Positions 18,094 through 43,585 of a stretch of 49,832 nt of DNA are shown here, piece by piece; the stretch's first letter is position 1, and each line of letters opens with the position of its first letter. The DNA is from Candidatus Parcubacteria bacterium (GTDB lineage: Bacteria; Patescibacteriota; Saccharimonadia; UBA4664; JBIOIQ01): assembly GCA_963718875.1 (NCBI GenBank), contig OY970378.1, positions 820,433 through 870,264 on the forward strand, in the 5' to 3' direction. Below the pieces are notes generated by a model. The model was not told the origin of the DNA and made no database searches. It saw only the letters and a program-made list of their open reading frames with translations. The position numbers and the translations under genes are program-made.

Positions 18094-18179
18094 ATTTCTT
18101 ATCCCTTATGCTTTTATTCTACGGTAAAGTGTAGCTCATTTAAACATTGCTCTAACGATATTAGTGATTTAAAGTTTTT

Positions 18180-24100: not shown

Positions 24101-25253
24101 GCACGCTGGAGGGGGCCAGTTGGACATAGCCATTGCCTGTGCTTGGAGCATAACCAGCACAAACTGCCGTGGTAGTACACACCCGAGCTACAGAGCCAGC
24201 CTCGATGACCTTTAATTGGTCTTGGGTGGAATTGTAGAATAGTCCCCCATTTCGAGTGGCTAGGCTAGTGGTGGGATCGGCCGTAGTAGAGTCTACCTGC
24301 AAAATAGTCGTATCGGTATCGGTGCCAGTTGAGTCGCCAATTTTGATTATGTTATTGGTGGTATTAGCAGTAAAGAGAGTGTGTGATGCTGTGGCAGATT
24401 GAATTCTAAACCCAGCAGTAGTGTCGGTTTGGTTTTTAAAGACCGCTGACCCGTCGTTAGCAATCAAGGCCACATCTACTCCTCCGCGCTGGAGTTGCAA
24501 GATATTGGCAGTAGCACCGGTTTTATTTATGGCGATCGAAGCGTTAGATGTAGAGCCATCAGCTTGCAAGCCTTGGCCTAGTTGCACAAACTGGGAGCTG
24601 GTTAGGCCGCCAAGTTTACCGGAATTTAGAGCATAGGGGTTGGCGGCTAGACGTTTGAATGGGGTCATTTCCCCGTCGCCACCGGCAGAAGCAAAGTCGG
24701 CAGGTGAAGCTGTATTACCAATGTTGAGCGATAACCACAAGGTGTCTTGGTTAAAGTCAACCGCGGTGCCGAGGGTAGTATTGACAGACCCTAGTTGGAC
24801 TGAGAAATAACCGTTTTTGACCGTTACTCCTTGAGAGTTGACGTTTAACCAGTCCTCGGTCCACTTGAGGGTGCCACCACAAGGTGCACTGCCAGAACTA
24901 ACGCAGCCATTACCATCCTGGTAAATCTTAAACTCAATGTTGTAGTTGCCGTCCGGTACGGTAGCCCCTTGGGCGTTTTGGAGCCGTGCTTGGAAATTAA
25001 TTTGAGAATTTATACCAGTGGCGGCTTGAGCTTGGGGCAAATTCCAAGATGCAAGAGACAAGATACAAGCAAAACCAAAAGTCCAAACTCCAATGCTCAA
25101 ACCCTTGGCGTTTGAAGTTTTGTGCTTTAAAATTGTTTGCTTCCTGCAAAAAAACGCCGTTTTTTGAAGACGCCAAAATGATGTTGCTAAAATAGGAGCG
25201 AGCAAGTTCGACAGATAAAACCATCGAATTCGCACTGGTCGATTAACTCCCAT
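18180..25253 (-). CDS. Giant secreted fibre/adhesin-like protein with tail-fibre-like Gly-rich segments and three CBM4_9-like modules
   Basis: 2357-aa ORF with an N-terminal hydrophobic signal region. CBM-like modules begin NNPSFENNTSGW..., ...FPANTWSAAPGG... and ...NFATNWTTFDADGG..., each ending in (I/Y)IDxxx(V/I). The start codon is uncertain. Confidence 0.85.
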   Translation of the reverse strand: MGVNRPVRIRWFYLSNLLAPILATSFWRLQKTAFFCRKQTILKHKTSNAKGLSIGVWTFGFACILSLASWNLPQAQAATGINSQINFQARLQNAQGATVPDGNYNIEFKIYQDGNGCVSSGSAPCGGTLKWTEDWLNVNSQGVTVKNGYFSVQLGSVNTTLGTAVDFNQDTLWLSLNIGNTASPADFASAGGDGEMTPFKRLAANPYALNSGKLGGLTSSQFVQLGQGLQADGSTSNASIAINKTGATANILQLQRGGVDVALIANDGSAVFKNQTDTTAGFRIQSATASHTLFTANTTNNIIKIGDSTGTDTDTTILQVDSTTADPTTSLATRNGGLFYNSTQDQLKVIEAGSVARVCTTTAVCAGYAPSTGNGYVQLAPSSVQVDSSTNNSIFVNKTGASGNIVEFQKGGIDVFSLGNTGNITIKTTTNSTSAFQIQNANDTAAILVDTTSSNATLGLNNPSFENNTSGWTARSGCTLVQDTSTRVFGMASAKCTNTATADAGVNYPITLTNGTQYTFSFYAKGTNGVSSLALGYSYNGVNETTYALTGQFASTQWNRHYLTFTPAGITGTPYLFIKNTDAVARTVNIDGVQIEVSSNPSAYSDGSIQLPVFRSALQIEPTDGQIALSISSPGGAGTPVLTVNSVTQKVGISVAPTALYNLLQLGAGTTSDFNATTFIAATSGTGKNLVLQAGASQTGDPFQIQTSGGTPLFAVTSGGNVGIGTGATAPTYPLSFGGTTGNKVNLYDTSGNNFGFGIQSGLLQIYANDATARVGIGYGNSVGFTETLTVKGANVGIGIIGPTSSLHVVTPQPVSLAGAGTAATQVLQVTGGKGGNTSGTTTTAGDGSNSDITAGAGGNATDATANTALAGTGGNLSFLSGAGGTNSSTGNRNGAAAGTISLTSGAGGNATGSGNNSSGGLISLQGGAAGTGGSGTAGSIGNISLQAAGGNVGIGTSSPGEKLTVVSADSSSSTNIGSFLANNLTQGIGIGYGEIRKIGSNANSDLKINAKGNGVLILQDTATGSVGIATPTPRKKLDVLDSTAAQLRLTYSDNSIYTDLQTDSSGNLTIDASGTKTTIADSLQVGASTTLGTSAGSGTLLTNNGATVNSTLALTDFATGGSIGTAANTVDKYTGISVAQTTASQALTIPTPTANTTYGRVVYVSNIGSVSFTFTNSLLTAALNPGATATLVWSNANGGASWTYAGADDSSILNQNSTNQTANFRISGSGEANTSFLTPLLDAAASATALNIGTTNANQINLNQNTTIGAAKTLTVTSALTSLTGATSGDALNVSNSTSSGNIVVFKSNATAVATLGSTGFATFNPLAASSGSPTIFSLAGPAHTGLTNAEAIDANLNLARTVTFTGGAATSFAAERALVVQAPIYAATTGTLTITDAATQAITGAPVKGSNVAITNTHALLIQSGATSTATNSYGLTVNAQTGATNNYTAVFLGGNVGIGTTAPTSDLSFGGNAARTIKLEANTANAAGNNLTVAAGNAGTGASPFAGGQLNIQGGNAAGTGNANGGNVLVTGGTGTGTGVRGLVIVDTPSFTTTTTDANCGATTAVNCTIAGGTVSNTSAVIVGATAVGITITMADPIILTAGRIFYFTAANGSSDFTLTLNAGGTLINIAMRANSTATLIWNGSDWTAAGASSSTTLQSAYDSTLTAAGGAEIILNNTASSNGLTVRNNATTPIIGGILEAQTSIGSNLFSVNNNANEYASNGGAETAGGSSTTFPANTWSAAPGGGTVARELTAANIATGQASTSVITTATTHGARNQLTTTLTPNLKYAVSYTVKAASASFTSLDTMFSFDGTASGTAMRECVAGTPTYSTGTASQSTTTITGVGTTWTAAMVGQIFVFANGTTARITAFGSVTSLTASVSQTVATAQNYAMYNPGNTVTTAVWSRVTCTFLAPASGMTSANSIFIRQTDGTGRTYYIDNLSVTVSADVNHAVDGSVDDATNFATNWTTFDADGGAGTSTITRDTATVYDTSGSAKAVTTAHANEGIRNNMLITPQVSTQYLVTFYAKASVAFSDMTVGFLPAGGSTVPVTAQLCTDYNTQTVSITVFTKITCIFTSTSSGITDPDLVIYQPTATARSIFIDALTVTLNTNASSNVQIGGANKGGPSTLLTLDRAASAPIAANNDAYLGSMYYDTTSGRIQCYEADGWGACGSAPDNIVNLNPEFSGAVLNGTGIGTMTADFCGNGGGLNINPALCSSGQARNFYKWTSPQATEQVYSIYVTYQLPASFKGFASDETVQLTARTDSTTNGAVTYEMFRNEGGAITACGTATTVASASANQWDTVGINGNEATSCGFTTSSANAFVIFKINVKAKSSANVYVGTLGFTTTGR

Positions 25254-25451
25254 TCACCACAACATTTACGAGTTCAATTATAGCATTATGCTTATGCTAA
25301 AATCAAGGTGCTAATGTTTAAAAAAGCAGCTTAGAATGATTAATTAACTTTTTTTTAAAAGAGTACTTGATTAAGGTAATAATTCAGCTCGAAAGGTTAA
25401 TTGCAAGCCACTGAATTTTAAGTTTACACCACTTTGCTCGGTTGGTTTAAG

Positions 25452-26126
25452 CTACGATAAGGTTACTGATTTCCAAGTTCCGCCAATTCGAACATATAAG
25501 CTTGAATTTGAAGTGTCGATTACCAAAGTTCCGTCTTCTGGTGTGGTGGCAAAATCACCGTCTGTTGGTACGCCGGCTTTCGTTTTAGTAGTAAGGCCAT
25601 CTGTCGCTACAAAACGATCATCCGTTTTTAGTTGATTCGCACCGCCGCGATAGAGCGTTGTATCGCCAGCATAGTCAGCAATTAAAGGATCACACCAGAC
25701 TAACATTCCATCAGATGTGCGTCGAAAGCGCAACCCTGACTGCCCCTCTATCCCCGTCACTTCAATGTTTTGTCCGCTAGCTGCAGCGCTGTATTCCATT
25801 GGATGTGTGCGTCTCTGACGCACCATGTTTTCTTCGACGTTCGTCCCCCCGCTTTGGTTACGGAAACGTTGGGTAACACTTTGATATGTATAAGAACCGA
25901 CTTCGACGGTATGGCCATCTGAAAGCTTCCACAAGCAATCATAGTCGGCTAAGGCGCATTCATCGACGAAAGTCCTATAACCATCATCAATAGCGTCAAT
26001 AAAGTACCCGTGCCCAGATGTTCCCGTAGCCCACACCCCGTTCAAATGCAGATTAGAAGGGGCGGCTTCCCACGTTATCAACCCGTATGCGGACAGCGGA
26101 CGTATGCTCTCCGACGCCCGTACCAC
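25452..26126 (-). CDS. C-terminal fragment of the tailspike-like protein (different frame from the upstream ORF)
   Basis: 224-aa ORF (GTG in the track) overlapping the 554-aa ORF by 74 nt in the +1 frame. It ends with a tail-fibre-like DGTLVIDTSNSSLYVRIGGTWKSV. Confidence 0.5.
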   Translation of the reverse strand: MVRASESIRPLSAYGLITWEAAPSNLHLNGVWATGTSGHGYFIDAIDDGYRTFVDECALADYDCLWKLSDGHTVEVGSYTYQSVTQRFRNQSGGTNVEENMVRQRRTHPMEYSAAASGQNIEVTGIEGQSGLRFRRTSDGMLVWCDPLIADYAGDTTLYRGGANQLKTDDRFVATDGLTTKTKAGVPTDGDFATTPEDGTLVIDTSNSSLYVRIGGTWKSVTLS

Positions 26127-27717
26127 TGTTAGCTAGGTGCATGCCGTAGATGTAGTTTTGGTCCCCTGCTCCGTAATGTATGTGTGCCTCAGGTGCTGCA
26201 CCGACAAATTGCCATTCTATTATTCCGCCAAAAAACTTATTATCCGTTGGTCCAGTATAGCCAGCATAGATCGCAGTAGCCGTAAATCGTACACCGATGT
26301 TGCAACCTGATATTTCAAGACCATAGAAACAATTTCCGCCAGCACCATAGTCAAGCCTTACCCCATCTCCCGTACAATCGTAGACTGAGATATTATTAAA
26401 ACGACTGTTCTGAAGCTGATCTATTACTAGGCCATTTACACAGTTCATAATAAATATGTCGTGAAATGTTCTTTGAGCCCCAAGTCCCACATGCAAGCCT
26501 ATGCTTGGAAAGACAGTTGGTGCAGCAAGAGTTGCAGTGCCTTTGATTCTAAAGTTACCACTGCTGCCGCCATATAAGCCCGTTACAGCATTACCGCCAA
26601 CCTGACTAAAGGTAATTTTGGCACTGGCTCCCTCCAGTATCAAAGTACTAGCAAATGATCCCGCGCCTTCCATATCAAGCGATTTATCGCCAGCAGGGGG
26701 AAAATATACATTACCCGTAATTCGATACTCTCCCGGTGGTACAAATAAAGTACCACCGGTAGCTGTCGCTGCAATAGCCGTAATGCAATTATTGAAGGCC
26801 GCTGTGTCATCGGTAGTGCCATTACCCACCGCGCCATAGTCTTTTACGTTAAAGTAGAGCGTGTCTTTAGCCACTTTTGCAGCCAGGTCCGTCGTAAGGT
26901 TGGCTACTTTGGATTGCGCTATATTGGCGCTGGCAGAAACTTTAGCATCTGTTATTGCCAAATTGGCTACCGTCGGGCTAGCAGCCGTACCAGATAAATC
27001 TCCCGACAACTGCAACTTGCCTTTAGTGGTAGCGTCGGCGTCTGGAGTCGAGCCAGATCCGACTACGCCGTCCACGTATAACTTGTTGGCTGCTTCTGTG
27101 TCAGCGGACGGAGTTGGCACAAGTGGTGCCGATGAAAAGGTTTTAACTCCGGCAATGGTTTCTGCCCCAGTGTTGTGAACTGCAGCCGAGTCGGTCGCTT
27201 TTGCAGCCAGGTCTGATGTAAGATTAGTGACTTTGGACTCAGAGATAGTGCTAACGTCAGCATCTACAATGCTTAAGGCGGCTAGCTTACTTTTAGCAAT
27301 CGCTGCACTACCACTAATATTGGCATCGGTTATGGTAGTATTTGCAATTTTAGAGCCGGTCACTGCACCCGCTGCAATGGTTGGCGCCGCTGCTGTACCT
27401 CCAAGGTCCCCCGCTAGCTGAATAATTCCTTTAGAGATAGTTGTGGCGTCCGGCGCACCGCTTGAAGCTGCCGTATCTACATACTGCTTGGTGGCTGCCT
27501 GGAGAGGCCCACTGGGATCACTCGACAAAGTTACGCTGCCAGAAAAGGTCGGGTTGGCTATAGGGGCTTTACTACCAAGATCAGCGGTTAGATTTGTAAC
27601 CTTACTTTGGGGTAGGGGTTTCTGTGTCCCGTCAGCATTATGCTCAACTGTGAGAAAATCATTAAGAATATCTCCCCAGGTACCATCATCGCTACCGGGG
27701 GTTGGGAGACGGGTCAT
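26053..27717 (-). CDS. Tail-fibre/tailspike-like protein with a pectate-lyase-superfamily right-handed beta-helix
   Basis: 554 aa. N-terminal PTPGSDDGTWGDILNDFL and NPTFSGSVTL...AATKQYVD tail-fibre-type motifs. NVKDYGAVGNGTTDDTAAF...GGTLFVPPGEYRI is the typical beta-helix depolymerase signature. No signal peptide. Confidence 0.75.
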   Translation of the reverse strand: MTRLPTPGSDDGTWGDILNDFLTVEHNADGTQKPLPQSKVTNLTADLGSKAPIANPTFSGSVTLSSDPSGPLQAATKQYVDTAASSGAPDATTISKGIIQLAGDLGGTAAAPTIAAGAVTGSKIANTTITDANISGSAAIAKSKLAALSIVDADVSTISESKVTNLTSDLAAKATDSAAVHNTGAETIAGVKTFSSAPLVPTPSADTEAANKLYVDGVVGSGSTPDADATTKGKLQLSGDLSGTAASPTVANLAITDAKVSASANIAQSKVANLTTDLAAKVAKDTLYFNVKDYGAVGNGTTDDTAAFNNCITAIAATATGGTLFVPPGEYRITGNVYFPPAGDKSLDMEGAGSFASTLILEGASAKITFSQVGGNAVTGLYGGSSGNFRIKGTATLAAPTVFPSIGLHVGLGAQRTFHDIFIMNCVNGLVIDQLQNSRFNNISVYDCTGDGVRLDYGAGGNCFYGLEISGCNIGVRFTATAIYAGYTGPTDNKFFGGIIEWQFVGAAPEAHIHYGAGDQNYIYGMHLANSGTGVGEHTSAVRIRVDNVGSRPF

Positions 27718-28004: not shown

Positions 28005-28958
28005 CTAGGTTGTGCGGCGCAAATCAATAACATTTGTTGTGGGCACCTTTGGAAACGAATACAACTCCGCTTGTAGACCTCGTAAATCCACTAAAGTGTA
28101 GTTTGAAGTTCGAGATGCTGAGGCTACTGGCTCTTGCCAGGTTTGTTTATTATTGAGGGATGCAGGAATATCCGACCATGCTTTTTGCTCTATCTTTGAC
28201 TCCGTAATTCTTAGCCGTTTCTGGCTTTTCCTGTTTACAAGCCAGACTAAAAGAATCGAAATTTGATATAACGCGATGATTGGTCCAGCCATAATAGTTT
28301 GGTTTAATGGATCTGGAGTGGGTGTAATCACCGCTGCTGCGACAAAGCTTATAACAATAACAAACCGTTGTTGCTTCATAAGCCCACCGGGCTTGAGAGG
28401 TTTAATGCGGTTGATGAACAAAATGATTATCGGTAATTGAAACAATACTGCAAATCCTGCCAAGTACACCATGACAAAAGAAAAATATTCATTAGTAGAA
28501 ATTAACGACTTGACTTGGTCAGAGCCAAAGCTATTTAAAAAATGAAGGGCGGCTGGCAGGCTAATAAAATAGGCAAACCCAACTCCAAAAACAGCCAAAA
28601 CACAAGAACTAGCTAAAAACTTAACCAACAGCCAACGATTATGACTAGGAAGTGTTGGTTCTAGAAACTTCAGTATGTTATATGTAAAAACCGGCACTGA
28701 AACGATAACACCAAAAAAAATACAAATTTTTAATAAAAAATCAAAACCACCGGTCGGTGAAGTATAAAAGAGTGGTTGGTTCAGAGGTTTAATTAGAATA
28801 TTAAAAATTTTTTCATTCAAAAAATATCCTATGCCAGCTCCAGCACAAAGGCAAACAACCGACCAGAATAATCTGCGTCGAAGTTCCTGTATGTGCCTTA
28901 TTATGGGCTGGCGGACAGCCTTATCGCCATGCCCCCGACGGTTCATGGCCCCGGTCAC
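28005..28958 (-). CDS. tatC: Twin-arginine translocase subunit TatC (with a ~70-aa C-terminal extension)
   Basis: 317 aa. N-terminal IIRHIQELRRRL motif, 6 TM helices, positioned 3 nt after tatA. Confidence 0.9.
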   Translation of the reverse strand: MTGAMNRRGHGDKAVRQPIIRHIQELRRRLFWSVVCLCAGAGIGYFLNEKIFNILIKPLNQPLFYTSPTGGFDFLLKICIFFGVIVSVPVFTYNILKFLEPTLPSHNRWLLVKFLASSCVLAVFGVGFAYFISLPAALHFLNSFGSDQVKSLISTNEYFSFVMVYLAGFAVLFQLPIIILFINRIKPLKPGGLMKQQRFVIVISFVAAAVITPTPDPLNQTIMAGPIIALYQISILLVWLVNRKSQKRLRITESKIEQKAWSDIPASLNNKQTWQEPVASASRTSNYTLVDLRGLQAELYSFPKVPTTNVIDLRRTT

Positions 28959-28961
28959 GAA

Positions 28962-29153
28962 CTAGACCTTTGTTCTTGCCTGATCGGCTTTGGAAGTTTT
29001 TTCTGATTTTTTGACATCGTCTGTAAACCCACGACGCAACTCCTTAACGCCATCGGCGATACTTTTGCTAAGCTCTGGTAATTTCTTCCCTCCAAAAAGC
29101 AGAAGTACAATCACCAATATTACGATTAACTCATTAAAACCGAGTCCAAACAT
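28962..29153 (-). CDS. tatA: Twin-arginine translocase subunit TatA/E
   Basis: 63 aa: MFGLGFNELIVILVIVLLLFGGKKLPEL followed by an amphipathic helix. Confidence 0.9.
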   Translation of the reverse strand: MFGLGFNELIVILVIVLLLFGGKKLPELSKSIADGVKELRRGFTDDVKKSEKTSKADQARTKV

Positions 29154-29198: not shown

Positions 29199-29471
29199 AT
29201 GATAAGCACAAGGGGTATGATGTCTGTATTAAAACGTGTCATTTTGTTGTCTACAATCCTCTCGGCTAACTTGCCTGCTCAAGTATTGGCTCAATCCTAT
29301 GGGCAAGGGGCCTATGACGCTGCCACATATGCAGGAAAAACTCTAAATATCGGCCCGATAGGTCCTATCCCGATTACAGGGACGACTATCTGGGGGACAA
29401 TGGGGGCAGTAGTTTTATCAGCTGCAGTAGGGTTAATTGTTTGGGCTCGCCAACGTCGATCTCTTAACTAG
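29199..29471 (+). CDS. Small secreted protein with a sortase-type C-terminal sorting signal (IPITG + TM + RQRR)
   Basis: 90-aa ORF. A likelier start is ATG 29217/29220, after AAGGGG. It has a signal peptide ending AQVLA, then IPITG-TTIWGTMGAVVLSAAVGLIVWA-RQRRSLN. Confidence 0.55.
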   Translation: MISTRGMMSVLKRVILLSTILSANLPAQVLAQSYGQGAYDAATYAGKTLNIGPIGPIPITGTTIWGTMGAVVLSAAVGLIVWARQRRSLN

Positions 29472-29519: not shown

Positions 29520-30494
29520 TTACGCCAAAGCCCCGGAAGCTTCAAGTTTATGCTTTTCGCGCCGTTCGCCAAACCAAAAGCTGGTTACAATTGCGACAAG
29601 GATCACTAGTAGAGGCCAAATAATTAAAAGCGAGTTTGAGCTTTTAGACGACCCTCCCCCTGAGGTTGTGCCTGTGCCCGAACCTAAGCTTTCCGCCTTG
29701 CCGTTTACGATTACTAGAATTGTTAAAAAGGCGAAGCGCCCTTTGGCGTCGGTGGCTTTTATGGTTACCTGGTAGGTTCCGCCACGAGCAAAGGTATGGG
29801 TAAGGTTAACGACGCTGTTATCTGGACGTGAGAGTAAATCAGATTTGTTATCTCCCCAGCTTACATTGAGGGCAAAGGGGGGTGTGCCAGAAATTATCTC
29901 TATCGGGACTTTTACTTCCTGTCCCGGAAATGCTCCCCGATAAACGGGACTTGAACGCAGCAAAAGCTGAATTTCGTTAAGGTTGCTTGAATTAAGCGGA
30001 GCAGCCTGAGTTGGCAGGGCGTCATAAAATACCGTCACAGTATTGGAGTCAGGCCCCGCCTGATCTAAGGCATCATAGACTCTAGCAACTAGATCATTTG
30101 ATCCATAAAGTAGGTCGATATCAACACTAAATGTTTTGTCACTTTTACATGGAGTAGCTCCTGCAAAGATATTATTTTTGAACAATTCTACTATGGTGTC
30201 CAGTGGACATGTGCCGCTTACTGCAATTGGCGTAGCACTAAAACGCTGCCCAGCGGTAGGACGAATTATGACGGCTGCTACAGTGGGTGGTTTTTCGGGA
30301 ACACGCCCCGATAGTCCAATAGACCCTTGATCGGGACCGGTATAGGGGGTGTCGGCCATGACCGATTGAGTTACCATGCCTAAAACCAATGTGCAAACCA
30401 TGATAAGAAAAGCCAGCCCAGCATAAGATGTGTGTTTATGGGGCAAAAGCCGACCGGTGTGTGAATGTGGGCTTAGTTTTGGTTTTGCGGGCAT
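29520..30494 (-). CDS. Surface protein with Ig-like and PKD domains and a C-terminal TM anchor
   Basis: 324 aa. N-terminal HTGRLLPHKHTSY + TM. PKD-like WGDNKSD...THTFARGGTYQVTIKATD. C-terminal TM + ERREKHK. Confidence 0.75.
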   Translation of the reverse strand: MPAKPKLSPHSHTGRLLPHKHTSYAGLAFLIMVCTLVLGMVTQSVMADTPYTGPDQGSIGLSGRVPEKPPTVAAVIIRPTAGQRFSATPIAVSGTCPLDTIVELFKNNIFAGATPCKSDKTFSVDIDLLYGSNDLVARVYDALDQAGPDSNTVTVFYDALPTQAAPLNSSNLNEIQLLLRSSPVYRGAFPGQEVKVPIEIISGTPPFALNVSWGDNKSDLLSRPDNSVVNLTHTFARGGTYQVTIKATDAKGRFAFLTILVIVNGKAESLGSGTGTTSGGGSSKSSNSLLIIWPLLVILVAIVTSFWFGERREKHKLEASGALA

Positions 30495-30585: not shown

Positions 30586-31794
30586 ATGGCGGAAGCCCAC
30601 CAAGCAATTACTGAGGCTTTACGAAGCCTCTTTTGGTGTCGAACACAGCCGCATAGTATGATATTAGCAAACTATTTAATTAACAGGTATAAAATGGCTA
30701 GTCGGTTAAGTAATTTGAGAAGCCATATTCCCAACTTAAATTCCCGCTATTTGATGAAAGCCGTTTTGTTGGTGCTTATCTATGTAATCTCAGCCAAATT
30801 GGGCTTATCACTAGCCTTTACTACCAAACAAATAACGGCAGTCTGGCCTCCCACCGGTATCGCCATTGCCGCCTTATTTTTGCTTGGTTTTAAATATTGG
30901 CCTAGTATCCTAGCGGGAGCCTTTGTTGCTAATATCTTGACTCACGAACCAGTGGCAGTTGCATTAGGTATTGGCATTGGTAACACGCTCGAAGCCCTAA
31001 CCGGCGCCTACCTATTACGCCGGACCAAGATAAGCCAAAAACTATCCGGTTTGCAAAACGTATTGGTCTTTATTGTAGTTGCAGCCCTCATTAGTCCCCT
31101 CGTAGGTGCCACCATTGGCACCCTAAGTTTAGCCTTGGGCAAACTTGTAACCTGGTCGACTTTTACGGCAAATTGGGCTGTTTGGTGGGTTGGTGATGCC
31201 ATGGGAGCTCTAATTTTTGCTCCACTCATACTGGTCTACAGCGGCATCCACCAAATCCATTTTTCATTCAAGCAATTAAGACAATTTGGCTTGCTACTGA
31301 CCCTAATTCTGGCCACAAGCGTATTAGTTTTTTCTCAGTCGCAACGCAGCGGTTTAACTGAAGCTCCTTATATCATCTTTCCGTTACTCATCTGGGTAGC
31401 CCTAAAGTTTGAGCAAATCGGGGTGGTCACGGCCACATTGCTTATATCCATGTCGGCGGTTTGGGGAACCGTTAATAAATTGGGGCCTTTTTCGATAGGG
31501 CAATCGACTGATCAAAACTTAATTTTCTTGCATCTCTTTATTTTTACGGTTTATACAACATCTCTCATTTTAGCGGCTACCGAGTCAGAGCGCAGGAGCG
31601 CTGAACAAACCTTAAAGGCAAGGACTATCGAATTAGAACAAAGCCAAGCCATCGTGCTCGAAGAAGTAGAACAAAGAAAAGGCCTAGAGGTCCGATTAAA
31701 AGAAGCCAATAGCCGAATGACAAACATCCTATCTGGTATCCTCAATGATAAGGCCGACACAGCCCCTATAAGCTCTGATTCTGATCGGCTCTAG
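30586..31794 (+). CDS. MASE1-domain membrane sensor with only a short coiled-coil tail (no output domain)
   Basis: 402-aa ORF. ITAVWPPTGIAIAALFLLGFKYWPSILAGAFVANI is typical MASE1. It has about 8 TM helices, then an ~80-aa coiled coil. The start codon is uncertain. Confidence 0.75.
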   Translation: MAEAHQAITEALRSLFWCRTQPHSMILANYLINRYKMASRLSNLRSHIPNLNSRYLMKAVLLVLIYVISAKLGLSLAFTTKQITAVWPPTGIAIAALFLLGFKYWPSILAGAFVANILTHEPVAVALGIGIGNTLEALTGAYLLRRTKISQKLSGLQNVLVFIVVAALISPLVGATIGTLSLALGKLVTWSTFTANWAVWWVGDAMGALIFAPLILVYSGIHQIHFSFKQLRQFGLLLTLILATSVLVFSQSQRSGLTEAPYIIFPLLIWVALKFEQIGVVTATLLISMSAVWGTVNKLGPFSIGQSTDQNLIFLHLFIFTVYTTSLILAATESERRSAEQTLKARTIELEQSQAIVLEEVEQRKGLEVRLKEANSRMTNILSGILNDKADTAPISSDSDRL

Positions 31795-32029: not shown

Positions 32030-33052
32030 TTAACGCTTGCGACGGGCTTTGGCAATAATGCGCCGGTTGTAGCCACGGATCATAGTGCGTAGGCCGAAGA
32101 AGAGCAGTATCAGGGCAAACAAGACGAGTAGTATCAATTTGTACGGAATTACCCAAAACCCAATACTTGCAGTTAGTGGTGTATTGGCATCACCGTATAC
32201 CAGATCAAGCCGTGCACGATAATGACCGAACAGCCACTTCTTGGTCCACTCACCTTCAAACCGTCGTATACTGCCAGGTAGTACGTTACGGGCTTTTGCG
32301 TTGGCGTCTAGAGTGGCAACTTTTTTGCCAAATGTATCAAAAATCTGGACTTTTCCAGTCGGCTTAACATGCACGGTGCCTGTATTTTGAAGCCTTTCAG
32401 TAAAGGTTAACGGCCCGGTTTCAAAAAAAGTACCCCGTTTTTCGCCTTGACGAATAAAGAATTCAGCTACGGCTAGTTTTTGCGTTTGTGGACCTGAAAC
32501 ATTCAACAAAATTAATGCACCGATACTAGCTTTTAGCGCCACACCGGTGCCTTCAAGTTCTGGCGGTGTACCAGTAAAGCGGACTACTCCATAATGCCCC
32601 CCTGGTTCAGCGTTTTTTGGTACGACAATGCGTATGGAGGCTGTCTTAATTTCGCGCGGGACGAGTTGGAATGATGGAACGCTGGGAATCCAAAATTTTA
32701 ACGAATACCTGGTGGCTTCAGTTTGGTCCAGCAAAATTTTTGGATTGCCGTTTTCTTCTTCGTCAGCCGTAAAATCATCGGCTTGACCATTAACAACCAA
32801 GGTGGCAGGGGTAATGTTGCGAATTTTAATATTAGCTATGACGGTCTGTCCAGGATCAGCCTTGAGCTCTATTACGGGCGGGGATATTTCTAGCCCTTGG
32901 CCAAAGTCTTGAGTAGGTGGGTTTGTTGCGGGTGGAGTTGCTGCATTAAGCGGAAGCACCCACGAAGTTGCAAGTATTAATCCAAAAACAAGTTGAAGCT
33001 TACGATGCACATGTATCCTGTAATTACTATTAGAAGGTGGCCGTACAAACAT
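32030..33052 (-). CDS. Secreted two-domain protein with a C-terminal TM anchor and basic tail (DUF916/DUF3324-like, CscA-like architecture)
   Basis: 340 aa. Signal peptide, LEISPPVIELKADPGQTVIANIKIRN... and ...VPKNAEPGGHYGVVRF Ig-like segments. C-terminal LILLVLFALILLFFGL + RRIIAKARRKR. Confidence 0.7.
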   Translation of the reverse strand: MFVRPPSNSNYRIHVHRKLQLVFGLILATSWVLPLNAATPPATNPPTQDFGQGLEISPPVIELKADPGQTVIANIKIRNITPATLVVNGQADDFTADEEENGNPKILLDQTEATRYSLKFWIPSVPSFQLVPREIKTASIRIVVPKNAEPGGHYGVVRFTGTPPELEGTGVALKASIGALILLNVSGPQTQKLAVAEFFIRQGEKRGTFFETGPLTFTERLQNTGTVHVKPTGKVQIFDTFGKKVATLDANAKARNVLPGSIRRFEGEWTKKWLFGHYRARLDLVYGDANTPLTASIGFWVIPYKLILLVLFALILLFFGLRTMIRGYNRRIIAKARRKR

Positions 33053-34145
33053 AAGTGAGAGTGGTGGTATAGGTACCAGCGGGTTGACTACCCGCTACGT
33101 TCACTATGTATGAAGCGGTGTAAATTTGAGCGTCGGTGGGTCCAGCGCCACCATTACTAGAATCGGCCACGGTGTTGCCGCTGACGAACTTAAACGTGTC
33201 TACGGCATTATACCCCGTTAGAGGGTTAGCTTTAAAGTTTGTTCCATTGGAGGCCGCTGCAACATCGGCGCCAAAGGCCGGAACAGCGGCGGAGGTAGTG
33301 TTGGCTCTTAAGTTTAAGCCGAACTGACCAGTTCCTTTAACGCTGGTGGATCCACTACCGGCAGATATTCCAGCAATTGTGTTTGCACCAGAGCTCATAG
33401 TAGCACCACTAACGGTAATGGCATAGCCAAACCCAGCATTAGTAGAAGCGGCCATTTGGGAGGTGGTGGTAGAGGTAGTTGCAGGCGAAAATTCTTGGTT
33501 AAAGGTTACTGATCCACTGGTAGCTGTGCTGCAGTCGGGCACTCCGCCGGTAGTAGAGATGGTGCCGCCGGTGCAAAATATGAGTGACTCGGGCATAGTT
33601 CCGGTCAAAGTGATTTGTTGCGCTGTCGACGCCGCAACTGTTCCAAAGTCAGTTACGCCGCCGGTAGTGTCGATGGAGGCATAAGTATTCATACGGACAA
33701 AAAACGTCCCAGGTGCGCCCGTGGGGTTGGTAACAGTGTCCAAGCGGATCGTCACAGCTGTACCAGCCGTAACAGCTGCAGCAGTACGAGTAATATAAGG
33801 TGCGCCGTTAGTAGTATTAACAATTGTAAAGCCGGTGGCACCGGTTTGAGCACCAAGTGTTGCCGAAGTGGATACAAGTCCAGTAGGCATAGTACAGGTG
33901 CCGGAAGCCGTAGTACAATATTCAAATTTAATTGAACCAACGTTGGTATTGCCTACCGATGGCAAGGTGAAACTGAATAAATGGTTTACAACGCCGCCGG
34001 GCTTAGAGCCGCCATCGGTCACACCATTTACCAGCGTTAGGCTGCGGCTGGTGATTTGAGCAGCTGAGACAGGTACAGGTAGCAAGGTAACTGCTAGTAC
34101 TGCAATTAGAAGCCATGTTAACCTTTGCCGAAGATTTAAACTCAT
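33030..34145 (-). CDS. Secreted Thr/Gly/Ala-rich beta protein, paralogue A (WxL-like C-terminus)
   Basis: Start placed at ATG 34145 (MSLNLRQRLTWLLIAVLAVTLLPVPVSA), giving 371 aa; the ORF track extends to 34277. About 85% identical by eye to the next gene. Ends AGTYTTTLTYVCTATF. Confidence 0.75.
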   Translation of the reverse strand: MSLNLRQRLTWLLIAVLAVTLLPVPVSAAQITSRSLTLVNGVTDGGSKPGGVVNHLFSFTLPSVGNTNVGSIKFEYCTTASGTCTMPTGLVSTSATLGAQTGATGFTIVNTTNGAPYITRTAAAVTAGTAVTIRLDTVTNPTGAPGTFFVRMNTYASIDTTGGVTDFGTVAASTAQQITLTGTMPESLIFCTGGTISTTGGVPDCSTATSGSVTFNQEFSPATTSTTTSQMAASTNAGFGYAITVSGATMSSGANTIAGISAGSGSTSVKGTGQFGLNLRANTTSAAVPAFGADVAAASNGTNFKANPLTGYNAVDTFKFVSGNTVADSSNGGAGPTDAQIYTASYIVNVAGSQPAGTYTTTLTYVCTATF

Positions 34146-34467
34146 ATATTTCCACTCACAAATAATACTTATATATAAGTTAGCATAAGCATCATGCGCT
34201 TGTAAATGGTTTTTTTTAATGGAAAATAGAATTGTGCAGTTTATTAGACCTCTTTCCAAACCCTCCCGTTTTTGCAAACTCGTTTATTGGGCAATCTATC
34301 GGCTTTTTACTTTTCAAGGTAGTACTATGGCTATCTCTCGTCGTAAGAAAGCCACTATATTGCAACTAAAACGAGTTTTCGGATTTTTTGAGGGGGTTTG
34401 GAAAGAGGTCTAATGGCTTTATTACGCTGGAACAAGTATGTTCTTAAGCTCAATTTAAAGTTACAGT

Positions 34468-35613
34468 CTAGAAGGTGGCAGTGCAAACGTAGGTAAGAGT
34501 GGTGGTGTAGGTACCGGCGGGCTGACTACCAGGTACATTCACTATGTATGAAGCGGTGTAAATTTGGGCGTCGGTTGGGCCCACGCCACCGTTGCTGGAG
34601 TCGGCCACGGTGTTGCCACTGGTAAACTTAAATGTATCAACAGTATTGTAGCCTGCTAGTGGGTTAGCTTTGAAGTTGGTTCCATTGGACGCAGCAGCAA
34701 CATCGGTACCAAATGCTGGTACAGCAGTAGCGGTTGTGTTGGCCCTTAGGTTCATACCAAACTGGCTAGAGTTTTTTACGCCTACACCGGCCGTACTCAT
34801 AGCGGTAATTGTGTTTGCGCCAGACGTCATAGTGGTACCGCTAACGGTAATGGAATAGCCAAAGCCAGCATTAGTAGAGGCAGCCATCTGTGAAGTGGCG
34901 GTGGCGGTAGTGGTTGGGGAAAATTCTTGGTTAAAGGTTACGGATCCACTAGTGGCAGTTGTACAATCCGGCACACCACCAGTCGTCGAGACAGTGCCCC
35001 CAGTACAGAATACTAGGGACTCGGGCATAGTTCCGGTCAAGACAATTTGGGTGGCGGTTGATGCAGCCACCGTACCTGAGTCGGTAACACCACCAGTGGT
35101 GTCGGTTGAGGCATAAGTGGTAATGCGGACAAAAAAAGTGCCGACGGTGGTGGGGTTGGTAACGGCGTCAAGGCGAATTGTTACTGCAGTGCCGGCTGTT
35201 ACAGCTGCTGCCGTACGTGTTACATGAGGCGAGCCGTTGGTAGTATTATCGATAGTAAATCCAGTAGCACCAGTTTGAGCTCCTAGCGTGGCAGCGGTTG
35301 TAGTCAACCCTGTTGGGGTTGTGCATGTATTTGTAGCGGTGGTGCAGTACTCGAATTTGATTGAGCCAACATTTGTGTTTCCTACTGAAGGTAAGGTAAA
35401 GGCAAATAAGTGATTTACTGACCCACCCGGCTTGGAGCCCCCGTCTGTTACTCCATCGACAAGCGTTAGACTGCGGCTAGTTATTTGAGCTGCAGAAACA
35501 TTTACAACTGGAAGTAGTAATGTCAGCGTTAATACGGTCGCGGCTATTCTAGCAACGTTAATTTTTATTTTTTCCAAATACCCCTCCAAATTGTTTGTGT
35601 TTTTTATTTTCAT
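34468..35613 (-). CDS. Secreted Thr/Gly/Ala-rich beta protein, paralogue B
   Basis: 381 aa with a signal peptide ending NVSA. It shares six conserved Cys and an identical C-terminus with paralogue A. Confidence 0.75.
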   Translation of the reverse strand: MKIKNTNNLEGYLEKIKINVARIAATVLTLTLLLPVVNVSAAQITSRSLTLVDGVTDGGSKPGGSVNHLFAFTLPSVGNTNVGSIKFEYCTTATNTCTTPTGLTTTAATLGAQTGATGFTIDNTTNGSPHVTRTAAAVTAGTAVTIRLDAVTNPTTVGTFFVRITTYASTDTTGGVTDSGTVAASTATQIVLTGTMPESLVFCTGGTVSTTGGVPDCTTATSGSVTFNQEFSPTTTATATSQMAASTNAGFGYSITVSGTTMTSGANTITAMSTAGVGVKNSSQFGMNLRANTTATAVPAFGTDVAAASNGTNFKANPLAGYNTVDTFKFTSGNTVADSSNGGVGPTDAQIYTASYIVNVPGSQPAGTYTTTLTYVCTATF

Positions 35614-35686
35614 AGCTTTTAACTAAGATCTGTTTAAGACATTACCATAAGCGCTTTCATAGTGTCAACGCTTTTTTTCAACGTTT

Positions 35687-36406
35687 CTAATAGGTACCTG
35701 TACATATGAGGGTGTGGGAGGTTGAATATTGGCCGCCTGGAGTGGTAGTAGTGGCGTTTAACAGGTAGGAGATGGTAAAAATGGTTTGTCCTGAACTTTT
35801 AGGCGCCGAGGCAATTGTACTGTTGTTGGCGTACTTGTAATTATTGGCGGTATTGTACCCTGAGGCTGCTACTCCGTACCCAAACACAGGAGTTCCGTTA
35901 TTGGGGTTTGCGCCCACGCTAACTGGCGAAGTATTGGCCACCAAGTTAATGCCGTACTGTTCCGTCCCCGCTTGAGATGGGGTTGGCGAACTAAGGGCTG
36001 GGATAACGTGACTGCCATTGCTAGGCGGAGAGCCAATAATTTGCACAACGTAACCAAAGCTAGTGTAGTTGATGACGCTAAAAGTCGAAGTAGCGGTGGC
36101 GGCAGCGGTGGCGGATAAGTCGTTAAATACTGTTTGCGCCGAGGGTACTATAAAAGTCAGAGCCGGATCATTGGTGGTAGTGTAACCAGAGTTGGTTTGA
36201 AAATTAGCGGAGCTGGATTCACCTATACCAAGATCGCCAATTGATTCAGCAGCGCTAAAGCTGGGTGAAGACTCTGTTATTAACCCTCCCCCACCAATAA
36301 AACTTTCGTCCACTTGAAAATTGTTTGACTTGAGAGTTTCGGCATGGACGCTGGGTATTACAAGCGCAACTGCTAAAAAGCAGATTAAAAACCACCATTT
36401 TGACAT
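35687..36406 (-). CDS. Smaller secreted protein of the same cluster (related C-terminal motif ...TLICTGTY)
   Basis: 239 aa with signal peptide ...SVHA. Repeated S-x-N-F-Q motifs. The C-terminus GGQYSTSHTLICTGTY parallels AGTYTTTLTYVCTATF. Confidence 0.7.
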   Translation of the reverse strand: MSKWWFLICFLAVALVIPSVHAETLKSNNFQVDESFIGGGGLITESSPSFSAAESIGDLGIGESSSANFQTNSGYTTTNDPALTFIVPSAQTVFNDLSATAAATATSTFSVINYTSFGYVVQIIGSPPSNGSHVIPALSSPTPSQAGTEQYGINLVANTSPVSVGANPNNGTPVFGYGVAASGYNTANNYKYANNSTIASAPKSSGQTIFTISYLLNATTTTPGGQYSTSHTLICTGTY

Positions 36407-36534: not shown

Positions 36535-37566
36535 ATGGATAGCCCTTCCTCAAATCCCCCGTCTAAGCCTTCTGGGTCTCCGGAAGCTGTTGTGCTGCAA
36601 CCGCGAACAGAAGGGAACAATACTGACACGGCCAATGGCTCACCGAACAAGAGCGATCAACCTATTCATTTAGCCAAGCGATCCTTTAAGCCGAGTCATA
36701 AGGCTACTTTTATCGCGCTTATTGTAATCTCTGTTTTGCTATTGGCAACAGTTGGATCAGTTATTTTTATTGTTTCTCGTGGCTCAAAAACAAAAGCTCC
36801 CAAAGCTCTGTCTGAAATTAACGTCAATAAAAGTGTTCTTGACCAGTTAGGCGTTAATCGCAGTTCATCAGGAGATGCCTCTATAGCCTTAGTTGTTTCG
36901 CCTAATGCTCAATTTAACGGTACCTTAACAGTTAGTAAAGATGTCAAAATCGGCACCAAGCTAACGGCCGGGCAAACCAGTTTAACTGGGCTTGACGCTG
37001 GTAATACATCGCTAACACAGTTAAACGTTAATGGCCCTTCGAGCTTGAGTGATACAAACGTTCGTACAAATCTGTCTGTGACGGGGACAACCCGGCTGCA
37101 AGGACCTGTAACTCTTGAAAAGCTACTCACTATATTAAATGGAGTCAATATTACGGGCGACCTAACCGTAGGTGGAACCTTAACAACCAATAACTTTACT
37201 GCGCGCAGCTTAACGTCCACGTCAACGCTGACTGTCGGCGGGCATGTTATTACGAACGGCCCAGTCCCGGGAATTTCGCAAGGATCAGCTCCCGGCCCAT
37301 CCGGCACTGTTTCGATAAGTGGTAATGACGCCTCAGGCACTATTGCCATGAACACGGGCCAGGCCCCCTTAGCAGGGATTATTGCCAGCATTACCTTTCG
37401 AACTCCTTACGGTAATACGCCCCGCGTGATAGTATCAGCATCGAGTCCTGCTGCTGGATCGCTGCAGTTTTATGTAAACCGCAGCCCTACCGGTTTTACG
37501 CTTGGGACTAACAATCCACCAGTCGCGGCCAGCGTGTATGTATTTGATTATATTGTGCAGCAGTAG
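36535..37566 (+). CDS. Type II membrane protein: disordered N-terminus, TM, beta-helical repeats, C-terminal H-type-lectin-like domain
   Basis: 343 aa with TM FIALIVISVLLLATVGSVIFIV. Repeats of the kind L(T/N)V(S/N)G...L(T/S)V. The C-terminus ITFRTPYGNTPRVIVSAS...TGFTLGT resembles H-type lectin modules (tentative). Confidence 0.65.
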   Translation: MDSPSSNPPSKPSGSPEAVVLQPRTEGNNTDTANGSPNKSDQPIHLAKRSFKPSHKATFIALIVISVLLLATVGSVIFIVSRGSKTKAPKALSEINVNKSVLDQLGVNRSSSGDASIALVVSPNAQFNGTLTVSKDVKIGTKLTAGQTSLTGLDAGNTSLTQLNVNGPSSLSDTNVRTNLSVTGTTRLQGPVTLEKLLTILNGVNITGDLTVGGTLTTNNFTARSLTSTSTLTVGGHVITNGPVPGISQGSAPGPSGTVSISGNDASGTIAMNTGQAPLAGIIASITFRTPYGNTPRVIVSASSPAAGSLQFYVNRSPTGFTLGTNNPPVAASVYVFDYIVQQ

Positions 37567-38344: not shown

Positions 38345-40982
<2,638 letters not shown>

Positions 40983-40996
<14 letters not shown>

Positions 40997-42503
40997 CTAC
41001 TTTGTCCTTCTTCTTATCCTTCTTCTTGCCCTTTTTGCCTTTACCTTGCTCTGGTTCGGGCTCTGGCGGAGGTGGAGGGGGCGGCGGGGGGGCCGGCGAA
41101 TGTTTTTTGACTAGGTCTTTTTCAACATTGTCGAAGTCAGCTTCTTCTTTGACCCCTGCACCAACCTCTTGGGCTGACTGTTTGAGCGCCGGGATATCTA
41201 GCTTGATTTTGCCTTCGCCCAAAATAATAGTTTCGAGTATCAGCTGTTGCTCCACTAACGAATATAGTTCATCCGGGGACTGTTTTAGAGCTTCATAAAG
41301 TTGTTTTCCTAGTTGTAAATTCAAAGTGGCTTCGGGGGATAAAGAAGATCCAAAGTGAGAGAACTCTTCAGCTTGATGATAACTGGCAAGCTTTTTAAAC
41401 AAGGTGCCTGAAAGGCGTTTCTGACGAACCGTTTGAGCCTGTCCACCGACGCGCGATACCGACAAACCGGCGTTAACGCCTGGACGAACTCCGGCCCGAA
41501 ATGATTTGAGGTCAAAAATAATCTGGCCGTCGGTAATAGACATGATAGTAGTTGGCAAGTAAGCTGTAATGTCGTCATTGGGTGTCATAATTACCGGAAG
41601 AGAAGTAAGGGTTTTCCCAGTATCCAGCTTTTTTCCGGCTCGCTCAAGCAAGGATGAGTGGGCATAAAACATATCTCCAGGGTACGAGTCTCGCCCCGGA
41701 TCAACTTCCTCGAGTAGTGACAACTCTCGATATGCTTCAGCATGACTCGAAAGGTCGTCATAGATGATAATGACGTCTCTCCCCTGCTCCCACAAATGTT
41801 CGGCCATGGCACAGCCCGCGTAAGGAGCAATATAACTTTGTGTCAACGAGTCAAACAGGTTCGCCACTACCACTATCGAATGGGCCATAGCGCCCGTAGT
41901 ATTTAAGTGATTGAGCAGGTTATTGATATCAACCTTGCGTTTACCAATTAGTACGTAAACTACGATGCGGTCTTTACCCATTTGGTTAACGGTAAGTTGT
42001 GTCAAATAGGTACTTTTACCCGATTTGGTATCACCCAATATGGCAATACGTTGGCCAAGCACAACCGGGAAAAGCATGTCCACAAAAGGCACACCGCTTT
42101 CAAGCTGGTCTTTGAGCATACTCCTGGCCATAATGCCAGGGGCGGGATTAAAAATACCCGATGTACTTTTGAACTGGATGGGGCCTTTGTTGTCCAGAGG
42201 CTGGCCAAGTGGCGAGACTACCCGCCCAATCAAGCCGTCCCCCACAGGAATACTGAGTAAATCGTTCTGAACCACAACCAAAGTCCCAGGCTCCATTTCT
42301 TCCGAGTCCAGATTGAATAATAGTACTTTGTCGCCTCGAGCTTCTCGAACCAGCCCGCGATCACCGTTTTCGAATAGCACCTGGGCTCCCAGGCGTGCCC
42401 CAAAAAGTCCCTTTACTTCAACAATAAAGCTATTTGAGGCTACCACTTCCCCGGTTAAGTTATTGGCTTGCACCAATGATTCAAACGTTTGATTATTAAA
42501 CAC
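40983..42503 (-). CDS. atpA: F1 ATP synthase alpha subunit with a poly-Pro / Lys-rich C-terminal tail
   Basis: 506 aa with Walker A GDTKSGKST and DDLSSHAEAYRELSLL. The tail is PAPPPPPPPPPEPEPEQGKGKKGKKKDKKKDK. GTG start. Confidence 0.96.
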
Positions 42504-42990
42504 GGTTTAAAACTTTCGTAAACTCATCCTTTTGGTCGAGGATTTTTTTTCGAAACGACCAATCATAGACATGACTACCCATCCTCACCACCAACCCGCC
42601 TAAAAGAGTGGAGTCACACTGGAAAGTCACCAACGCTTGATGGCTAATCTCTTGACGCACCCAACCAACCAAGCGTTGCTTGACAGGTTCGGATGCTATG
42701 CCGGCGAGGACCATGGTAATAGTTGGGGCTTCCTCGCGAATTTTTTGAAGAGCTGCAATCAGCTCATCAAAAGTAGCGCCTGTAATGGTCTGTTCTTTTT
42801 GGATATCGGCTAGCAGCTCCAAGCTTGCCACTGACAGCTTAGGGGCATTTTCGACTTGAATCCCTAGCCCTACGCGGCCGCGAATATCTTCGTGCCCATA
42901 CCAATTGGCATAGGTTTGAAGTTCATTAATGACAAGGATTAGCCTGGTACTGGAGTACAGCCATGACGAAAGCTCAACCTTCATTAGCAA
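42496..42990 (-). CDS. atpH: F1 ATP synthase delta (OSCP) subunit
   Basis: 164 aa. The C-terminal LLGGLVVRMGSHVYDWSFRKKI matches the OSCP signature. Operon position is consistent. Confidence 0.8.
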   Translation of the reverse strand: MLMKVELSSWLYSSTRLILVINELQTYANWYGHEDIRGRVGLGIQVENAPKLSVASLELLADIQKEQTITGATFDELIAALQKIREEAPTITMVLAGIASEPVKQRLVGWVRQEISHQALVTFQCDSTLLGGLVVRMGSHVYDWSFRKKILDQKDEFTKVLNRV

Positions 42991-43585
42991 CCTCGGCTTT
43001 TAGTTCCTCTTTGTGCTCGTTGAGCGTAGCTTCTAGGTAAGGCAATTGGGCACCCAGATCCACATTATGCTGCAGTGTTTCAAGCAGAAAGGTAATGACC
43101 GAGTCGTTGAGCTTGGTTGATAACGCTGCTAGCAAACGTTGTTTTTCGGCCTCAACTTCCTTTCTCATGTCAGCCTCAAGTGCCTGCCGTTGTTTTTGGG
43201 CGGCAGCCTGGACTTCCCCCATTCCTGATAGTGCTTCCTCGCGCAATTTAGATAAGCCCGTGCGATACTCTTCGAGTTCGGTGGCGATAATATTAGTTGA
43301 AAGGTTCTTAATCTGACTATTAATGACGCCCGAGGTGTCGGTGAGATCATGGCTAAACTTCTCGGCCGAGAGGTCTAGCGCCTTTAGGTAATCATCCTTT
43401 GTCTCATGTATAAGCTGGTCTTTAACTTCCTGAGGTACTACAACTGCGTTGGTTACAGGGACAGCAGGTTGGCTGTCTGGCGGAACTGAGCCGCGGTCTC
43501 GAATAGCAAGAGCATAGGCTACGCCAATACCAAATATAAAACTGGCTGGAAGTGCAATGATTTGGATGATGCTTATTGTATTCAT
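42974..43585 (-). CDS. atpF: Fo ATP synthase b subunit
   Basis: 203 aa: an N-terminal TM helix followed by a long charged coiled coil. Operon position directly upstream of atpH. Confidence 0.7.
   Translation of the reverse strand: MNTISIIQIIALPASFIFGIGVAYALAIRDRGSVPPDSQPAVPVTNAVVVPQEVKDQLIHETKDDYLKALDLSAEKFSHDLTDTSGVINSQIKNLSTNIIATELEEYRTGLSKLREEALSGMGEVQAAAQKQRQALEADMRKEVEAEKQRLLAALSTKLNDSVITFLLETLQHNVDLGAQLPYLEATLNEHKEELKAEVANEG

Follow-up and report, generated by a model that had tools for sequence, protein, structure and literature searches.

The closest described counterpart of the genes considered here is the Pam pilus of Ca. Mycosynbacter amalyticus, for which cryo-electron microscopy (cryo-EM), mass spectrometry, and an assembly model have been published (bioRxiv 10.64898/2026.03.03.709456). 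Its filaments, as seen by cryo-EM, are built from the two-domain pilins PamA and PamB, which polymerise in that each subunit uses its inter-domain linker strand to complete the truncated immunoglobulin (Ig)-like C-terminal domain of the next. According to the same preprint, the operon encodes the pilins PamA, PamB, and PamE, the single-domain tip pilin PamT, and the membrane-anchored RbmA-like terminator PamR, as well as PamC and PamD, which are PapD/FimC-like chaperones bearing a C-terminal membrane helix. The operon is usher-less, the assembly model assumes no outer membrane, and the conserved neighbourhood includes ATP synthase genes and a "tail-fibre-like" gene. Here, a four-gene cluster at positions 32030-36406 of a 49,832-nucleotide stretch of DNA from Candidatus Parcubacteria bacterium (contig OY970378.1, positions 820,433 to 870,264; the whole stretch is referred to as the window) was analysed, and this locus is very probably a Pam-type pilus operon of a Saccharimonadia bacterium (Candidate Phyla Radiation (CPR)/Patescibacteria). 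A preliminary description of the window had presented the system as uncharacterised, which does not stand, since the Pam operon has already been described in that preprint and is covered by curated NCBIfam models.

A second group of surface systems has to be considered alongside the Pam pilus. What the WxL/Csc clusters of Firmicutes do has been under debate since 2006-2007; for one of their components, WxLIP, a role as bridge to the wall or to the host has been proposed. WxLIP is composed of DUF916, DUF3324, and a transmembrane (TM) helix (PMC10599100), and PDB entry 9i25 contains the Enterococcus faecium protein in complex with a long WxL protein. The preliminary description had likened the four genes to such a cluster and had offered an SCPU/archaic-pilin-like fibre as the alternative; both proposals are weighed below, where the evidence that bears on them is given.

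Pam identity of the subunits and the anchor

The four open reading frames (ORFs) were confirmed at exactly the limits claimed for them. As had been stated, they are co-directional and encode predicted secreted proteins, each with an N-terminal hydrophobic segment resembling a signal peptide; all four lie on the minus strand. In the order of transcription they run from 36406 to 35687 (239 residues), 35613 to 34468 (381 residues), 34145 to 33030 (371 residues counted from an ATG, the ORF reaching to a TTG at 34277), and 33052 to 32030 (340 residues). The second and third products are paralogues with 81% identity, and the C-terminal ~125 residues of the 239-residue protein are 30% identical to both. 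The C-terminal motif that had been noted in these three proteins is real, although its earlier form was one position too long; the form that fits all of them is G.Y(S/T)T..T(L/Y)(I/V)CT.T(F/Y), which occurs as GTYTTTLTYVCTATF in two proteins and as GQYSTSHTLICTGTY in one.

Searches against NCBIfam release 20 identify these subunits through curated models that derive from the M. amalyticus preprint, namely NF058578 (PamR), NF058579 (PamT), and NF058581 (Pam_pilin_C). The 239-residue protein (35687..36406) matches the CPR_pilus_PamT equivalog model NF058579 over residues 7-239 with 285.5 bits (cutoff 240), NF058581 spanning residues 90-239. It is the tip pilin PamT, the first gene of the conserved order described further below; a signal peptide and a short N-terminal extension precede its Pam pilin C-terminal domain, and a donor (linker) strand is lacking. 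Both paralogues are two-domain Pam pilins, whose C-terminal halves match NF058581 with 138.8 bits (paralogue 1, 34468..35613) and 134.5 bits (paralogue 2, 33030..34145) against a cutoff of 55. They are assigned to the class of Pam pilins by the domain model only, so that neither PamA, PamB, nor PamE is singled out as the putative counterpart of one or the other.

Paralogue 1 is laid out as a signal peptide, an N-terminal beta-sandwich (~41-186), the conserved linker TGTMPESLVFCTGG, and a C-terminal acceptor domain (221-381), with a block of invariant residues from G194 to G205 within the linker. In the AlphaFold2 (AF2) model of the pilin the N-terminal sandwich reaches a predicted local distance difference test (pLDDT) score of ~90 and the C-terminal domain one of ~30. 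A C-terminal domain that is predicted not to fold alone is consistent with donor-strand exchange, and is no evidence for it. An invariant linker next to an unfolded C-terminal domain agrees with the preprint, in which conservation was found to be highest in the donated linker and in the site that binds it. Because the C-terminal domain is unfolded in the model, Foldseek with the pilin returned only generic matches of its N-terminal domain to Ig-like adhesins and pilins. Single-sequence searches of Pfam and of PDB sequences with the pilins and the 340-residue protein gave nothing useful, and family profiles run against PDB sequences gave spurious matches only.

Two further observations were made on the subunits. 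Residues 45-172 of the pilin encoded at 34468-35613 match DUF2808 with 27.4 bits (Pfam cutoff 25.3), a match that recurs in 7 of 38 close homologues only. The pilins also carry five invariant cysteines (C90, C97, C203, C217, and C377), and mature PamT has a single one, equivalent to C377, in its last strand (…ICTGTY / …VCTATF). With an odd number of cysteines, of which the acceptor strand and the donated linker hold one each, an inter-subunit disulfide could be formed.

The probable anchor, PamR, whose role as terminator and membrane anchor is the one proposed in the preprint, lies outside the range that the preliminary description had delimited. The product of 29520-30494 (minus strand, 324 residues) matches the CPR_pilus_PamR equivalog model NF058578 with 346 bits (cutoff 300) and has a C-terminal hydrophobic helix at residues 284-310; it is the RbmA-like PamR. 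A small IPITG protein (29199-29471, plus strand) had been proposed as wall tether instead. This candidate was abandoned as a conserved component, because neither a homologue nor any small ORF with a signal like that of sortase substrates was present in 80 related loci, and PamR is the conserved anchor candidate. The protein itself (90 residues) has a layout like that of sortase substrates, with a signal peptide, PIPITG, a hydrophobic segment, and an RQRR tail; its size is like that of the small LPXTG proteins of WxL clusters, and it gives a faint IPTL-CTERM match (E 0.16).

The chaperone-like protein and its relation to WxLIP

The 340-residue protein (32030..33052, minus strand) occupies the position of PamC/PamD. 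The two peptides that had been quoted from it as Ig-like segments, LEISPPVIELKADPGQTVIANIKIRN and VPKNAEPGGHYGVVRF, are present, and its hydrophobic C-terminal helix (~292-328) is followed by a basic tail ending in RRIIAKARRKR. An AF2 model computed from an alignment of 38 sequences (mean pLDDT 87) consists of two beta-sandwiches (54-185 and 193-301) and a helix (304-339). By this model the protein would supply the membrane-anchored two-Ig chaperone that a Pam operon requires. The best Foldseek matches of the model in the PDB are the E. faecium WxLIP structures 9i1y_A and 9i25_C (E 2e-9, target TM-scores 0.46-0.50), followed by RbmA and then by the chaperone-usher chaperones CfaA, DraB, Caf1M, FimC, FaeE, and CupB2 at ~E 1e-7 (target TM-scores 0.5-0.55).

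Family profiles point to the same relative. The window's copy has no Pfam match, PF06030 and PF11797 included, and none of the DUF916, DUF3324, WxL, and SCPU profiles whose use had been proposed gave a hit above threshold. Among the 38 members of the family, PF06030 (DUF916) matches 28 below threshold with 14-19 bits (cutoff 27.3), always with profile positions 21-120 and always in the N-terminal domain; PF11797 (DUF3324) matches none of the 38. For a direct comparison of families, the EfmWxLIP3 peptide from the published supplement was traced to two fragments in a frameshifted Enterococcus locus, and the stitched WxLIP was used solely as tblastn probe. It found 322 plasmids, from which 12 diverse loci were fetched, and the comparison proteins taken from them were all Pfam-verified. 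With hhalign the 340-residue family aligned to the 12 WxLIPs with 94.1-94.8% probability and E-values of 1.3e-7 to 5.5e-8 over 235-236 columns, a span that covers both Ig domains and leaves the signal peptide and the TM helix outside. The control with reversed WxLIP sequences gave E 0.03, and comparisons of the 340-residue family with PamR, the family of the 343-residue neighbour, pilin domains, and small WxL proteins gave E 0.018-0.5 over at most 38 columns. When a WxLIP hidden Markov model (HMM) was run against 5,851 ORFs of CPR loci, the top 30 matches all belonged to the 340-residue family (best E 1.7e-7). The WxLIP signature NQIDKxxxYFDLK (PMC10599100) is not kept, the aligned stretch GQGLEISPPVIELKA sharing strand character only. 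The preliminary description had placed this protein in the CscA-type DUF916/DUF3324 layout, and this assignment is borne out by both fold and profile: judged from its sequence and predicted structure, the protein is a member of the WxLIP family by descent with a PapD-like fold.

The Foldseek matches to chaperone-usher chaperones also speak for an archaic chaperone-usher pilus of the SCPU/Csu type, in which SCPU-family pilins would be assembled by a PapD-family 340-residue chaperone working with an usher. The C-terminal G.Y...-type motif is loosely like the F-strand of chaperone-usher pilins, and PamC and PamD are called FimC/PapD-like in the preprint. This explanation already fails on family membership, and we regard it as highly improbable. 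The PapD-family models PF00345 (PapD_N) and PF02753 (PapD_C) match none of the 38 members, and against 10 PapD-type chaperones (FimC, MrkB, PefD, Caf1M, FaeE, and others) hhalign gave E 0.27, which is worse than the 0.054 of the reversed control. SCPU (PF05229) and Fimbrial (PF00419) match none of the 38 close or 115 diverse PamT and pilin sequences at E<=10, and the Pam C-terminal domain aligned to 14 chaperone-usher pilins with E 0.3. Furthermore, the 340-residue protein is membrane-anchored, unlike PapD, the preprint's model of Pam assembly assumes no outer membrane, and scans of the window's ORFs with Pfam and NCBIfam, neighbouring genes included, detected no usher family. What remains of the fibre that had been suggested is its donor-strand mechanism, which agrees with the NCBIfam Pam matches and the cryo-EM of the preprint; its attribution to SCPU is not upheld.

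Two weaker signals were seen among the comparison families. WxLIP and the PapD-type chaperones could be aligned by hhalign over 190 columns, though weakly (E 0.01, against E 0.53 for the reversed control), and WxLIP and the PamR family aligned over 30 columns with E 1.7e-4, a match that was judged to be a local similarity of Ig hairpins. Both may be distant superfamily links among two-Ig surface proteins.

The homology of the 340-residue protein to WxLIP counts in favour of a Csc/WxL-type surface complex. Here, divergent WxL-domain proteins would be held at the wall non-covalently by the WxLIP homologue, forming a compact complex for adhesion or polysaccharide binding and no polymer. The layout of the cluster mirrors that of real WxL clusters (PMC10599100), with three adjacent proteins sharing a C-terminal domain in an arrangement of small and large members. 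Under a permissive alignment, G-Y-x-I-t-V of the Pam proteins pairs with motif 1 of the WxL domain (G-W-x-L-x-V), and their C-terminal Y..T(Y/L)(I/V)C pairs with Y...L.W.L. In Pfam-verified WxL proteins of Bacillus and Listeria, Tyr or Val replaces the second Trp, and the pXO1 ending ...SYESKLTYSIVTGP resembles the Pam ending ...TYTTTLTYVCTATF. Aligned to WxL domains with hhalign, the Pam C-terminal domain gave E 0.004-0.096 over 17-43 columns, with the last ~40 residues in register (E 0.004-0.02 for this weak alignment).

Membership of the three pilin-type proteins in the WxL family is not established by these resemblances. PF13731 (WxL) matches none of 38 close and none of 115 diverse PamT and pilin sequences at E<=10, the three proteins of the window included, whereas control WxL proteins score 28-228 bits. 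Instead of two Trp-x-Leu motifs, the paired positions hold G-Y-x-I and T-(Y/L)-(V/I)-C. The hhalign signal falls inside the range of unrelated secreted families (E 0.018-0.5), and none of the pilin profiles that were tried (all, small-only, PamT-only, and pilin-only) made it significant. HMMER cross-searches and rank tests between the Pam C-terminal domain and WxL were not significant either, and although PamT and pilins appeared to be over-represented among the best matches of the WxL HMM, this is confounded by composition and by many spurious background ORFs. Also against a WxL-type complex stand the curated models, PamT and PamR passing their equivalog cutoffs and both pilins that of the Pam pilin C-terminal domain, and the long filaments that M. 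amalyticus pilins of the same family form in cryo-EM. A WxL-type complex is therefore an unlikely explanation for this locus; of the earlier comparison, the CscA-type assignment of the last gene and the likeness in layout hold. The two readings may be compatible if WxL systems also use strand complementation.

The WxL loci fetched for comparison add an observation of their own. On plasmids of Bacillus (including pXO1 of B. anthracis), Terribacillus, and Listeria (loci L089, L090, L091 (pXO1), L092, and L093), the order small WxL, WxLIP, large WxL lies inside a conjugation block with CpaF/VirB11, VirD4-like, and TrbL-like genes, which hints at a role of these clusters in mating-pair contact.

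Gene order in Saccharimonadia and the wider neighbourhood

The conservation of the four-gene cluster is far beyond chance. Homologues numbered 1,341 for the 340-residue protein and at least 2,937 for the pilin, at 65-81% identity; those that carry a name are all annotated "hypothetical protein" and all come from Saccharimonadia. When species-representative genomes were scanned, 378 species-level genomes were confirmed to contain relatives, and both these and the 80 related loci that were fetched for a comparison of gene order belong without exception to Saccharimonadia/Patescibacteria. If F denotes the divergent gene, T PamT, P the pilin, C the 340-residue family, and R PamR, then 52 of the 80 loci show the order FTP*CR, TP*CR, or P*CR, so that the synteny in CPR genomes that the preliminary description had proposed to look for is indeed found. 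The dominant order is atpD-atpC, F on the opposite strand, PamT, one to four pilins, the 340-residue family, and PamR. Tandem pilin paralogues in one to four copies are the rule, and in most loci PamR comes immediately after the chaperone-like gene.

The flanks of the cluster fit this order as well. In at least 28 loci, a divergently oriented gene of the 343-residue type lies upstream of PamT; in the window it is found at 36535..37566 (plus strand), and its product, which has only weak Pfam matches, combines a membrane anchor at the N-terminus with a repeat-rich ectodomain. It is probably the "tail fibre-like protein" of the preprint. Genes for an F-type ATP synthase (epsilon, beta, gamma, alpha, delta, and others; NCBIfam atpD, atpG, atpA, and atpH) follow at 38345..43585 on the minus strand. 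atpD-atpC stands upstream of the cluster in 16 of the 80 loci, and the preprint reports the same neighbourhood. Scans for promoters and terminators yielded nothing above chance.

The window departs from the common order at one place, where a gene for a MASE1-domain membrane protein (30586..31794, plus strand, 402 residues; Pfam MASE1, 152 bits) is situated between the chaperone-like gene and pamR. The protein has a C-terminal coiled-coil and is without an output domain such as a kinase or cyclase. Because none of the 80 related loci contains a homologue, the gene is taken as an insertion specific to this genome or lineage and not as a Pam component.

In a second type of locus the chaperone-like gene occurs on both sides of the pilins, beside tatAC. 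The window likewise has tatA-tatC (28005-29153, minus strand) adjoining pamR, and these genes adjoin pam loci of the C-P-C-R type in ten other genomes (loci L037, L038, L056-L058, L062, L064, L069, L072, and L080). No obvious twin-arginine signal was seen on the Pam proteins of the window. C-P-C-R loci also encode a protein of ~180-200 residues ending in …KPAGNY.ATI.YTAVPQT.., which is another pilin-like C-terminal motif (L037:8238-8777, L080:7281-7889, L071:3716-4258, L053:250-795, and L051:7260-7832, all on the minus strand), and this protein may be the PamT equivalent of such loci.

Further away, the cluster is flanked on both sides (13288-27717 and 45683-49774, both minus strand) by very large secreted proteins, namely one of 1,601 residues with Kelch repeats and two of 2,357 and 1,363 residues, each with CBM_4_9, as well as by a tailspike-like protein of 554 residues with DUF5907 repeats, a pectate-lyase-like region, and BppL_N. 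They look like a surface or host-interaction arsenal. A protein of 547 residues (8612-10255, minus strand) combines an N-terminal Rpf-like region (resuscitation-promoting factor/lytic transglycosylase) with a C-terminal lectin domain and is a plausible candidate for an enzyme that targets the host cell wall.

Proposed assembly and comparison with known systems

Based on these genes and on the M. amalyticus model, the following assembly can be proposed. All components would be exported by Sec, after which the membrane-anchored two-Ig protein (32030-33052) would hold new subunits, its own strand completing their unfinished C-terminal beta-sandwich. PamT, which has the acceptor domain only, would begin the fibre at the distal tip, and the two paralogous pilins would then join successively, the conserved inter-domain linker strand of each entering the C-terminal domain of the previous subunit by donor-strand exchange. 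At the base, the N-terminal strand of PamR would cap the fibre and its C-terminal helix would fasten it to the membrane. As there is no outer membrane to cross, neither an usher nor an ATPase would be involved. The fibre would probably mediate contact with a host bacterium. Order of assembly, strand donation by the chaperone, and the role in host contact are the parts of this scheme that we infer.

Several points weigh against reading the locus as a Pam operon. Filament formation and donor-strand exchange are carried over from the cryo-EM of M. amalyticus homologues, the present locus being known from its genes alone. The equation of the 340-residue protein with PamC/PamD rests on position, architecture, and fold, because no NCBIfam model matched it. 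The low pLDDT of the pilin's C-terminal domain could equally stem from a shallow alignment of low diversity, and the copy of the PDB used for Foldseek and sequence comparison was without the PamA and PamB structures. Finally, since the MASE1 gene on the opposite strand parts pamR from the cluster, co-expression of the anchor is not assured.

Taken by itself the locus is ordinary, as it represents one compact variant of an already described family. What appears to be unreported is the link between Pam and WxL: the preprint (bioRxiv 10.64898/2026.03.03.709456) makes no mention of WxL, DUF916, or DUF3324, and in the literature searched no paper was found that joins WxL with donor-strand pili. The specific homology between the chaperone-like Pam protein and WxLIP points to a relationship between WxL clusters and Pam pili as assembly systems. 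A further step would be to regard Pam pili and the WxL/Csc clusters of Firmicutes as two branches of one ancient, usher-less surface-assembly system, WxLIP corresponding to PamC/D and the WxL domain to the Pam pilin C-terminal domain, in which the two-Ig membrane protein completes and then hands over subunits with an incomplete C-terminal beta-sandwich. We put this forward tentatively, with somewhat less than even confidence; its chaperone half is well supported and its subunit half is not.

The homology of the Pam assembly protein to WxLIP suggests a testable mechanism for WxL systems, namely strand complementation of a chaperone-like kind, possibly with polymerisation, and also suggests an origin of the CPR pilus among the surface systems of monoderm bacteria rather than among the chaperone-usher pili of Gram-negative bacteria. 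If the two systems were indeed branches of one, strand complementation would also account for the assembly of WxL proteins, those in the conjugation modules of the pXO1-like, Listeria, and Terribacillus plasmids included, and such proteins may form short fibres. WxLIP rather than PapD would then be the ancestor of the Pam "chaperones".

Compared with chaperone-usher pili (Fim/Pap, Caf1, CFA/I, and archaic Csu/SCPU), the principle is the same, an incomplete Ig-like subunit being completed by a two-Ig chaperone and then by the strand of its neighbour, and so is the fold of the chaperone. The Pam system differs from them in having no usher, no outer membrane, and a chaperone that is anchored in the membrane, and in using two-domain subunits whose inter-domain linker, not an N-terminal extension, serves as donor strand. 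Neither at the level of sequences nor at that of profiles was a similarity to PapD-type chaperones or Fimbrial/SCPU pilins detected.

In Lactobacillales and Bacillales, WxL/Csc clusters follow the same logic as the cluster of the window, with a small protein that consists of the C-terminal domain only, larger proteins that end in it, and an anchored two-Ig protein (PMC10599100). WxLIP (CscA; PF06030 WxLIP_PGBD, PF11797 WxLIP_HBD, and a TM helix) also agrees with the 340-residue protein in size and three-part architecture (PMC10599100, PMC9772566). On the other hand, the window's copy lies under every Pfam threshold and has GQGLEISPPVIELKA in place of the WxLIP signature, and its partner proteins are without a PF13731 match and without both Trp-x-Leu motifs. 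Pam loci contain no conserved LPXTG protein, the anchoring role being taken by PamR, and descriptions of WxL complexes speak of attachment to the wall, not of long filaments as in Pam.

From the M. amalyticus Pam operon the window differs in being compact, with one chaperone-like gene instead of two, in having two near-identical pilins of ~35-38 kDa and no large (55 kDa) PamA-type pilin, and in the MASE1 gene that separates the chaperone-like gene from pamR. It shares with that operon the PamT and PamR equivalogs, pilins of two domains that have a conserved linker and carry the Pam pilin C-terminal domain, and a chaperone-like two-Ig protein with a TM helix at its C-terminus, as well as ATP synthase and "tail-fibre-like" neighbours and the restriction to Saccharimonadia.

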